Source of the DNA: Actinomycetota bacterium
GTDB taxonomy: Bacteria; Actinomycetota; Actinomycetes; S36-B12; CAIYMF01
Assembly (NCBI GenBank): GCA_026393115.1
Contig: JAPLAU010000029.1
Coordinates: forward strand, 16,057-80,056
Length of the DNA: 64,000 bases
Direction: 5' to 3'
Made by a program: the position numbers. Below, in pieces: positions 24,001 through 27,000 of this stretch (its first letter is position 1; each line of letters opens with the position of its first letter).

Positions 24001-27000
24001 CCGCAGGAGAGGCTGTACGTGGCCACCGTCAGCGATCCGACGATGTACGAGGCGGCGTTGTAGCTGGTCGACGTACCGCCGGAGCAGTGGGTCACATAGG
24101 TGCCGGCATTGAGGGTTCCGATGGAAATTGGCAGGGCGAAGACCGTGTCGTCAGAGCGGTACACGGCACACGTCGGCTCAAACGTCCAGTCAGCGGCGAC
24201 GGTGACCGGCGAAGTGGTGTAGCCGATCGTCGGAATGGAGTCGGAACTTGTGATCGTCGATGGTGAGACGGCAGTGACAGTCACGTCGGTCTTGGGTGGC
24301 GACACCGACACCGTAACCACTTCGTCCGCCGTGTTAACTGCGTTGGAGGCGGTGATGGTAAACGTGTCTGTGGTCGAACCGGTCGCAGACTGACGCTGAG
24401 CCTGCGTGGGCGTGTACGTGAACTCACCGGTGCCCGAGTCGATCGACACTGTGGCACCACCGGTCGACGTGGCCGGCACGCTGTACGACAACGTGAGCCC
24501 CGCAGGATCGGTGAACACGGCCGACCCGGTAACCACGCCCGTGGCATTCACCGGAGTGCCCACGGTGGGAGTACCCGCCACCGGCGTGCCCGCCGACACC
24601 GACACCGTCACCACTTCGTCCGCCGTGCCGACTCCGTTGGAGGCGGTGATGGTGAACGTGTCGGCAGTCGAACCGGTCGCAGACTGACGCTGAGCCTGCG
24701 TGGGCGTGTACGTGAACTCACCGGTGCCCGAGTTGATCGACACTGTGGCGCCACCGGTGGACGTGGCCGGCACGCTGTACGACAACGTGCGCCCTACCGG
24801 ATCAGTGAACGCCGCCGTTCCGGTGACCACACCGGTGGAACTCGCAGGATCGCCCACGGTGGGAGTTCCAGCCACCGGCGTGCCTGGCGACACCGTGACC
24901 GTCACCACCTGCGGCGCAGTATTCACCCCGTTGGAGGCGGTGATGGTGAACGTGTCGGTTGTTGAATCCTACGCGGCCTGACGCTGAACCTGCGTGGGCG
25001 TGTACGTGAACTCACCGGTGCCCGAGTCGATCGACAACGTGGCACCACCGGTAGACGTGGCCGGCACGCTATACGACAGGGTGCGGTTTACCGGATCAGT
25101 GAACGCCGCCGTTCCGGTGACCACACCGGTGGCATTCACGGGAGCGCCCACGGTGGGGGTGCCCGCAACTGGAGTACCCGCCCCGATGCCGGCCGACGCC
25201 GGGGCCGCGGCGACTACCCCGATGCCCACTGCCATGAGGGCGCACGACAGCAGAATCGCCAGCACTCTGGCGAGAGGATGTCCGATCACTTGCTTCACTG
25301 AGGCCCCCACTAACAGACGCTGAGTCGCGATTCTGTTTATGCAGTTGATCACGATTCGGGACCTAAGTCCCCCACTTGGGCGACCGAAGAACACGTGTAA
25401 ATGAAGATCACTCGTTAAGGACTCACTTGCAGTAACTGCGCACTCGCTGCGCGTGTCGAACTACTCCAGTGGAGTAACGAATCAGGTGCGGAGTCGATAC
25501 ACACTCACACGAGCGGGTTGCGCACTCGTAGCGTGGGGAATCGGGTGAAATCCCGATCGGAGGTGAGCAGTTCACGCACACCGTGGTCGAGACACATCGC
25601 CGCGATGCGCGCATCGTGAGTGACTCCCCCCAGCACCCGGCCGCTCGCCATCAACTCGCGCAGAGTCGATAAGTGTCGGCCCGATTCGTGCAACAGCGTC
25701 GCCCGTGGGCTGGCGACCCAATGGTCAACCTGATCAAGGGCCATCGTCATAGGCGTCGGCGGCCTGAAGATCTTCGGACTGGTCACGATCGCAAGAAACT
25801 CGTGCAGCACAGACCAGCAGAGGCCGACCGGTTCGCTGCCCGCAAGTGCTTCCGTCACTACCCGCAGGGCAACGTCGTGCTGGGGCATCTCGCCTCGATG
25901 CGCGTACACGAGGATGTTGGTGTCGAGCGCGATCACCGCTCGTTCGCCATCTCGCGAATCTCGGCCCATGACATCGCTGCTGCAACTTCGGTCAGCCCCT
26001 CGCCGGTGAACACCAGGTCGGCTTGGGGAGTCCACGTTTGAGTTGCAGACCGGCGTTCGATCTCTCGCCGCAGGGCCTCCTCGATCAGGCTGCGCATGGT
26101 CGTGCCCCACTGCGCGGCACATCGGCGCGCCTCATCGGCGAGCTCGTCCGGAAGTTCGATCGTGGTCTTCTTCACGGGTGAACCGTATCACATTACCCAT
26201 ATATACGGGTCTGGTTGAAAACGGCAACAGCGCAGTCTCGTGCCGGCCGTCGAGACCCCACTCCAGCGCTACTTCAGACCTCGCGAAATAGCACTGGAGT
26301 GGGGTCTCGGGTGGCTTCGCTTCTTCGCGGCGGTGGTGCACTCGGTTGAAGAAGCGGTGGTCAACGCACTCGTGGTGAACACCGAGATGGTCGGTCGCGA
26401 TGGGCACCGCAGTCCGGCGCTTCCGCACGATCGCGTTGTTGAAGCGATGCGCCGCGCGTACGCGACATAGTTCGCTGCGCAGATCGCGAGGGCCACTTGC
26501 CCTCACCACACTTCGACTTCTTTGGTCAAACGAATCCCCGGACGGTCATCCCTTGACAAAAGATGCCGAAGGAACCGGCACGCGGTGGGAGCGAACCAGC
26601 CGCGGCCTTGGCGCTAGACTCACGGTCCATGGAAGCCACCGCGCCCGAGTCCGCCCCGGTCGAGCCCCCCGGCGCGAAGGCCAAGGTTCTGCTGCGCCGC
26701 GCCGGGATCGCCGTCGTCCTTATCGTGATTCTGCTGATACCGGCGATCGTCATGGTGGTGGCTACGGCGGTGTTCACCGGCCACGCCGAGGGCGCGGGCA
26801 CCTACGCATCCATCCCCGCGCTCGCCACGATGGCTGCCGTGGCGGCCGGGGGCCGCGATCTGGGACTGCGCGTGGCGATCGTCCTGATGCTGCTCGGGCC
26901 GCTGTCGATCGTGGCCGGGGCTAATCCCGTGTCGGGCGCGGCCCTCATGGCCCTCATGTGCCTCATGGTGGGCCTGATGTCTCGATGGGGACTGCACCGC

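Follow-up and report, generated by a model that had tools for sequence, protein, structure and literature searches.

The gene for a giant, probably secreted protein, 10 kb long with about 3,452 codons, is interrupted at codon 110 by a lone in-frame TAG (24971..24969, minus strand). In our judgement, with a probability of about 0.75, the TAG is a recent and very young loss-of-function allele, either fixed or segregating in the sampled natural population. It would then be an ordinary nonsense allele, or nascent pseudogene, of a familiar kind, and not a special decoding or switching device. The source genome (G000) is a MAG from an uncultured environmental actinobacterium, 3.51 Mb in size, assembled into 34 contigs with small N gaps and 95% complete. 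The window, i.e., the whole 64,000-nucleotide stretch of DNA that was analysed, covers positions 16057-80056 of contig C12.

On the minus strand the sequence around the stop reads ...ACG CAG GTT CAG CGT CAG GCC GCG TAG GAT TCA ACA ACC GAC ACG TTC ACC..., where T is at 24971, A at 24970 and G at 24969. The mutated base is 24970, A in the coding strand and T in the plus strand. Translation of the entire frame 25394..14940 gave a single stop in 3,485 positions. The N-terminal ORF (24972..25298, minus strand) comprises 109 codons from GTG 25298 and encodes the signal peptide followed by some 72 residues belonging to the first of the 98-aa repeats, while the remaining frame (14940..24968, minus strand) is fully open, with 3,342 sense codons followed by TGA. 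The initial annotation had described a lone TAG between a signal peptide ORF and a giant body, and its coordinates, frame and content all match the window sequence. The ORF 14940..24926, which had been placed in the same frame as the TAG, was also recovered in the ORF listing, with 3328 aa counted from its first GTG. Conceptual read-through keeps the repeat consensus (...TYTPTQVQRQAA*DSTTDTFTITASNGVNTAP...; ...TQVQRQAA*DSTTDTFTITASNGVNTAP..., the asterisk marking the stop), as had been pointed out, and since the ortholog in the related genome G001 is continuous through the same site, with TCG replacing TAG, the continuity across the stop is not due to chance. The motif QSATGST, reported for the homologous position in the sister repeats, was seen in both repeat 2 and repeat 3.

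The repeats form three tandem units of 294 nt, or 98 aa (24300..25182, minus strand; TRF: period 294, 3.0 copies, 86% matches, 0% indels), and the TAG falls in the first of them. They share 40-65% identity with giant proteins, most of them mycobacterial or from other Actinomycetota, whose sources name them "tandem-95 repeat", "VCBS" or "Ig-like domain-containing". Their best relatives in the databases, which bear these tandem-95/VCBS/Ig-like names, carry Big_9 (PF17963), and the window repeats themselves score 17.4 bits against this profile, where the cut-off is 23.6. In its N-terminal 98-aa repeats the protein is like the giant tandem-95/VCBS/Ig-like proteins of Mycobacteriales and other Actinomycetota. 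The giant body is built from a decapeptide-repeat array, three DUF285 stretches, PKD-like and MBG-like domains and a Gly-rich domain. Pfam matches were strong for the decapeptide repeat region (PF25296, 561 bits, cut-off 45) and for the BspA-type LRR family DUF285 (PF03382, 341 bits in three stretches, cut-off 25), weaker for Pentapeptide_4, and sub-threshold or borderline for PKD_4, MBG_2 and Big_9. With both of the former matches above the gathering score, the protein also resembles the giant secreted proteins with decapeptide repeats (PF25296) and DUF285. Searches of the protein collections returned no full-length protein on record with the same combination of modules and more than 65% identity; the sole ortholog is fragmented in G001.

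The ORF listing places the start of the gene at GTG 25394, giving an N-terminal ORF of 141 aa. This upstream start was rejected, as the codon is GGG in G001. The true start is most likely GTG 25298, which is favoured by a GGGGG five bases upstream (25304..25308, minus strand), a probable ribosome-binding site that is identical in G001, and by conservation of the start codon itself in G001. The leader of about 200 nt in front of it (25299-25500) is nearly identical in the two genomes. As read from the sequence, the first residues form a signal peptide, MKQVIGHPLARVLAILLSCALMAVGIGVVAAAPASA|G (25188..25298, minus strand), with K2 and R11 in the n-region, a long core whose most hydrophobic 15-residue window has a Kyte-Doolittle mean of 2.75, and A-S-A as the cleavage motif, and we take this N-terminus to be a Sec signal peptide. 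The same segment holds a lipobox-like ILLS-C at Cys19 (residues 15-19, window 25242-25256, minus strand), which reads TVLA-C in G001 and is followed by a second hydrophobic stretch and the ASA|G site. The giant protein may therefore be exported as a lipoprotein and not as an ordinary Sec substrate; no other anchor was recognisable in it.

Among 60 relatives, only G001, a lake MAG from the same genus ("uncultured bacterium isolate LJ_bin-5001"), has an ortholog of the N-terminal part of the giant protein. The 5' part of the ortholog lies on contig CAIYMF010000139 (C139). In the relatives search it was 92% identical at the amino acid level over 210 residues with no stop inside, and its frame is open through the site homologous to the TAG, with 91% amino acid identity over 362 residues. 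A second contig, C342, starts inside the giant gene and contains the C-terminal 1,306 codons, all open, with 94% amino acid identity over the last 654 residues. The intactness of the ortholog was accordingly read over the first 362 and the last 1,306 codons. Assembly breaks in the repeats split the ortholog, C139 ending there and C342 beginning inside the gene, and the decapeptide/DUF285 middle is missing in G001 or scattered over small contigs. Nucleotide identity to G001 is about 93%. Synteny extends on both sides of the gene, where C139 matches upstream out to 39421 and C342 matches downstream from 11368 and below, and this flanking synteny identifies the genes in the window and in G001 as true orthologs. 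No independent copy of the species was found when the N-terminal ORFs of 109 and 141 aa were looked up exactly, nor among JGI metagenome contigs searched with a 29-nt pattern carrying NNN at the codon and with a protein-guided scan. Full-length and fragment-length queries against a collection of 5.8 billion proteins likewise gave no independent copy and nothing above 72% identity, in collections from which records of this genome or of close ones may be missing.

The initial annotation had suggested a comparison with orthologs, and in G001 the gene is intact at the site: the homologous codon is the Ser codon TCG (GCC GCG TCG GAT TCA, against GCC GCG TAG GAT TCA in the window). The 30 nt on each side of the codon are identical between the two sequences in the nucleotide alignment. 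Judged from this comparison, the TAG is derived by a single base change, TCG to TAG, i.e., C>A in the coding strand at 24970, a G:C>T:A transversion whose polarity rests on one ortholog. The homologous codon is ACC in repeats 2 and 3 of both genomes, and TCG in repeat 1 of G001. The 48 nt around the stop differ from repeats 2 and 3 at no fewer than 10 positions, making up a patch specific to repeat 1. Formation of the TAG by repeat chimera, collapse or gene conversion was ruled out, as no repeat copy carries A at the second codon position. Because no mixture of repeats yields an A there, the change, if it is an error, must be a simple miscall of one base to which the repeats did not contribute.

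We estimated dN/dS between G000 and G001 by the Nei-Gojobori method. The values were 0.32 for the 109 codons upstream of the stop, 0.54 for the 198 codons just after it and 0.23 for the C-terminal block of 651 codons (dS 0.16). On these ratios purifying selection has acted on the giant gene through most of the period since the species split, until recently. There are 929 stop-creating changes among the 31,059 possible single substitutions in the gene (3.0%), and no second lesion was found in the remaining 10 kb. With indels ignored, one extra nonsense codon would be expected in the open 10 kb at a neutral divergence of 0.0033 per site, and three at 0.01. That the 10 kb is still open despite this proportion of stop-creating substitutions means that the allele is very young, or that it is not real; the absence of further decay is equally expected from a consensus error. 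If real, the allele would be younger than roughly 0.01 substitutions per site, as against about 0.08 synonymous changes per site on the G000 lineage.

Effects of the TAG on expression can be outlined as follows. Ribosomes would terminate after 109 codons and release the signal peptide with an incomplete first Ig-like repeat. Cleavage of the signal peptide would leave about 72 residues of that repeat, and nothing functional would remain. The body of 3,342 codons would be untranslated, or made at best in traces lacking an export signal, and the long untranslated mRNA may be exposed to Rho-dependent polarity, as general bacterial physiology suggests. The first in-frame start-type codon after the stop is the GTG of codon 125 (24924..24926, minus strand). 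The body had been said to begin at an internal Met; this needs correction, as the codon is GTG and not ATG, an internal Val at residue 125 of the full frame ("VNTAPQVV"). Within 15 nt of GTG 24926 there is no Shine-Dalgarno-like sequence. The next 150 residues hold no hydrophobic segment (best 15-residue mean 1.23), and across the entire body no 19-residue window exceeds a mean of 1.55. With neither a ribosome-binding site nor a hydrophobic segment past the stop, re-initiation was dismissed as a source of exported protein. Since there is no hydrophobic segment after GTG 24926, a re-initiated product would stay in the cytoplasm, and the earlier statement that the body has no export signal unless the stop is read through holds.

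Some features of the surrounding DNA deserve mention in their own right. Directly upstream of the giant gene, 25505-26122 (minus strand) encodes a 205-aa PIN-domain protein with 98% amino acid identity to G001, more conserved than its surroundings. A REP-like palindrome at 26244-26317 gave a sub-threshold Rfam match to mir-378 on both strands (23 bits, gathering score 80), a chance resemblance of the palindrome's hairpin. Sub-threshold matches at this palindrome (26245..26316) were the sole Rfam matches, and no structured RNA or known RNA family was found around the 5' end of the giant gene. Further upstream, the window has about 1.5 kb at 26321-27799 where G001 has 1.25 kb, and about 3.7 kb at 30734-34444 where G001 has 0.58 kb. 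The blocks between these two intervals are 83-84% identical, compared with 93-95% elsewhere, and the region shows both indel flux and faster divergence. Downstream, about 3.5 kb (11368-14938) separate the 3' end of the giant gene from the syntenic block that comes next; this segment has no counterpart in G001, where about 340 bp are found. In this interval the product of ORF 13818..14681 combines an incomplete ABC_membrane domain (profile positions 5-174 of 274) with an incomplete Bestrophin-like domain, and looks like a fused remnant. Farther downstream, a 3.7-kb block at 4985-8664 is 98.5% identical to C342:8324-12004 in G001, as against 93-95% for the adjoining synteny. The block codes for a beta-propeller protein (matches of NHL/SBBP/Vgb_lyase type) and an inosine-uridine nucleoside hydrolase (99.4% amino acid identity), and its high identity may stem from a recent exchange between the two species or from exceptionally strong constraint.

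The initial annotation had left four options for the stop, i.e., recent pseudogenisation, a sequencing error in a repeat, a phase-like on/off state and low-level read-through. Pseudogenisation and sequencing error survive the analysis, while the phase switch and functional read-through do not. An in-frame TAG within an otherwise continuous frame is also what pyrrolysine decoding by pylT/pylS produces in Methanosarcina and some bacteria. Those systems differ from the present one, in which the genome has neither tRNA(CUA) nor PylS, TAG is a usual stop and the ortholog has Ser. ARAGORN found no tRNA with a CUA anticodon among the 47 tRNAs and the tmRNA of the whole genome (95% complete), and the PylS profile TIGR02367 matched nothing in G000, while its score on the Methanosarcina control was above the cut-off. 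The 1,138 long coding-like frames end with TGA in 621 cases, TAG in 303 (27%) and TAA in 214; same-frame junctions of coding-like frames across one stop involve TGA 86 times, TAG 45 times (29%) and TAA 24 times. The proportions at junctions match those of the long frames, so there is no excess of in-frame TAGs. These counts come from a codon-usage scan which did not flag the giant gene, probably owing to its odd composition rich in Thr, Gly, Ala and Ser, and which served for stop proportions and not as a pseudogene census. Sense recoding of TAG was thereby rejected, with no tRNA(CUA), no PylS and TAG a common terminator. Basal near-cognate read-through of UAG exists in all bacteria, and tRNAs such as Gln-CUG, which is present in the genome, might read TAG at 0.01-1%. 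With the frame downstream of the TAG intact, such a leak could supply a little, perhaps useful, exported full-length protein, and we consider a functional role of this sort very improbable. The TAG is not conserved, the only ortholog having a sense codon, and it is an ordinary terminator genome-wide; there is neither a suppressor tRNA nor Pyl machinery; and the 126 nt of RNA from the stop onwards fold no better than shuffled sequences (MFE -51.8 against a mean of -48.3 kcal/mol, z = -0.92), while Rfam returned nothing relevant in 24800-26400. The intact downstream frame is more simply explained by the youth of the mutation. What stands of the read-through option is thus the unavoidable basal leak, and what falls is a programmed event, given the unconserved stop and the lack of suppressor, Pyl or RNA structure. 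In other bacteria phase variation is frequent among large surface proteins, and the TAG might in principle be one state of a reversible control over display of the giant protein; we give this next to no weight. Slipped-strand switching of adhesin genes also interrupts the frame early in a large surface-protein gene, but uses homopolymer or short-repeat tracts in the 5' coding region, whereas the window has a base substitution and no such tract. Neither a homopolymer nor a short tandem repeat is present at or beside the codon (GCC GCG TAG GAT TCA), the ortholog differs by a substitution and not by repeat number, the 294-nt repeats are in frame with 0% indels, and the 5' region, with 94.6% identity to G001, showed no features of an invertible element. 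Nor does a point substitution work as a rapidly reversible switch, and the on/off option is not supported.

An error in the consensus is the main rival, and we regard it as unlikely. In that case the organism would have TCG or another sense codon, the A being miscalled or a rare variant, and the gene would be intact and functional. The genome is a MAG with 34 contigs and small N gaps, G>T on the plus strand is a signature of oxidative damage in short-read libraries, and the giant gene is otherwise perfectly intact and looks selected. As G:C>T:A often arises by spontaneous mutation and is also a mark of oxidative library damage, the change is expected from either source and its type does not discriminate. 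Against an error, consensus substitution errors are rare and about 3% of them make a stop, so that less than about one such artefact is expected per genome, while natural genomes typically carry tens of genes disrupted by real nonsense alleles. The repeats themselves are not the cause: the site lies in the patch specific to repeat 1, with its 10 or more differences within 48 nt, no repeat allele has A, and collapse of the repeats cannot give a TAG. Neighbouring orthologous genes show no such errors. In about 19 kb of synteny between G000 and G001 all other long orthologous frames (376, 467, 389, 296, 585, 816, 466, 361 and 191 aa) are intact in the window, which argues that the assembly is not generally error-ridden; the stop-bearing ORFs in the synteny table are overlapping off-frame ORFs with lower protein identity than the true frame. 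Pieces paralogous to the giant protein on C2, C32 and C33 have no stops in tblastn. From these priors we infer that the base A at 24970 is probably real in the DNA. Recent pseudogenisation fits the derived one-step change from TCG to TAG, the intact ortholog, the purifying selection until recently and the lack of a second lesion.

A gene of 10 kb presents a tenfold larger target for nonsense mutation than the average gene, and giant surface proteins belong to a gene class that natural populations often lose. The best-studied parallel is offered by the premature stop codon (PMSC) alleles of inlA in Listeria monocytogenes, where likewise a single nonsense codon truncates a repeat surface protein bearing a signal peptide, the rest of the gene is intact and relatives have intact alleles. 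In certain niches the PMSC alleles are common, and elsewhere intact alleles persist (PMC5131979, PMC12427964, PMC11555985). The present case differs in that the stop lies almost at the start of the gene, at codon 110 of about 3,452, so that nothing functional would be left, and in that the host is an uncultured environmental actinobacterium. One may speculate that the TAG is a segregating null allele held at appreciable frequency by negative frequency-dependent selection, where loss of the giant surface protein evades a phage or grazer that uses it and basal read-through might leave a trace of exported protein; we think this improbable. If it were true, the MAG consensus would have caught one side of an ecological polymorphism in a lake population.

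In annotation the two ORFs should be entered as one disrupted gene (pseudogene or "internal stop"), and not as a small secreted protein and a 3,328-aa cytoplasmic protein. Beyond annotation the importance is little. Inferences about the cell surface of this organism should allow for the giant protein not being displayed, and should both alleles be present in reads, the site could serve as a handy marker for following how a natural freshwater population loses a giant surface protein.
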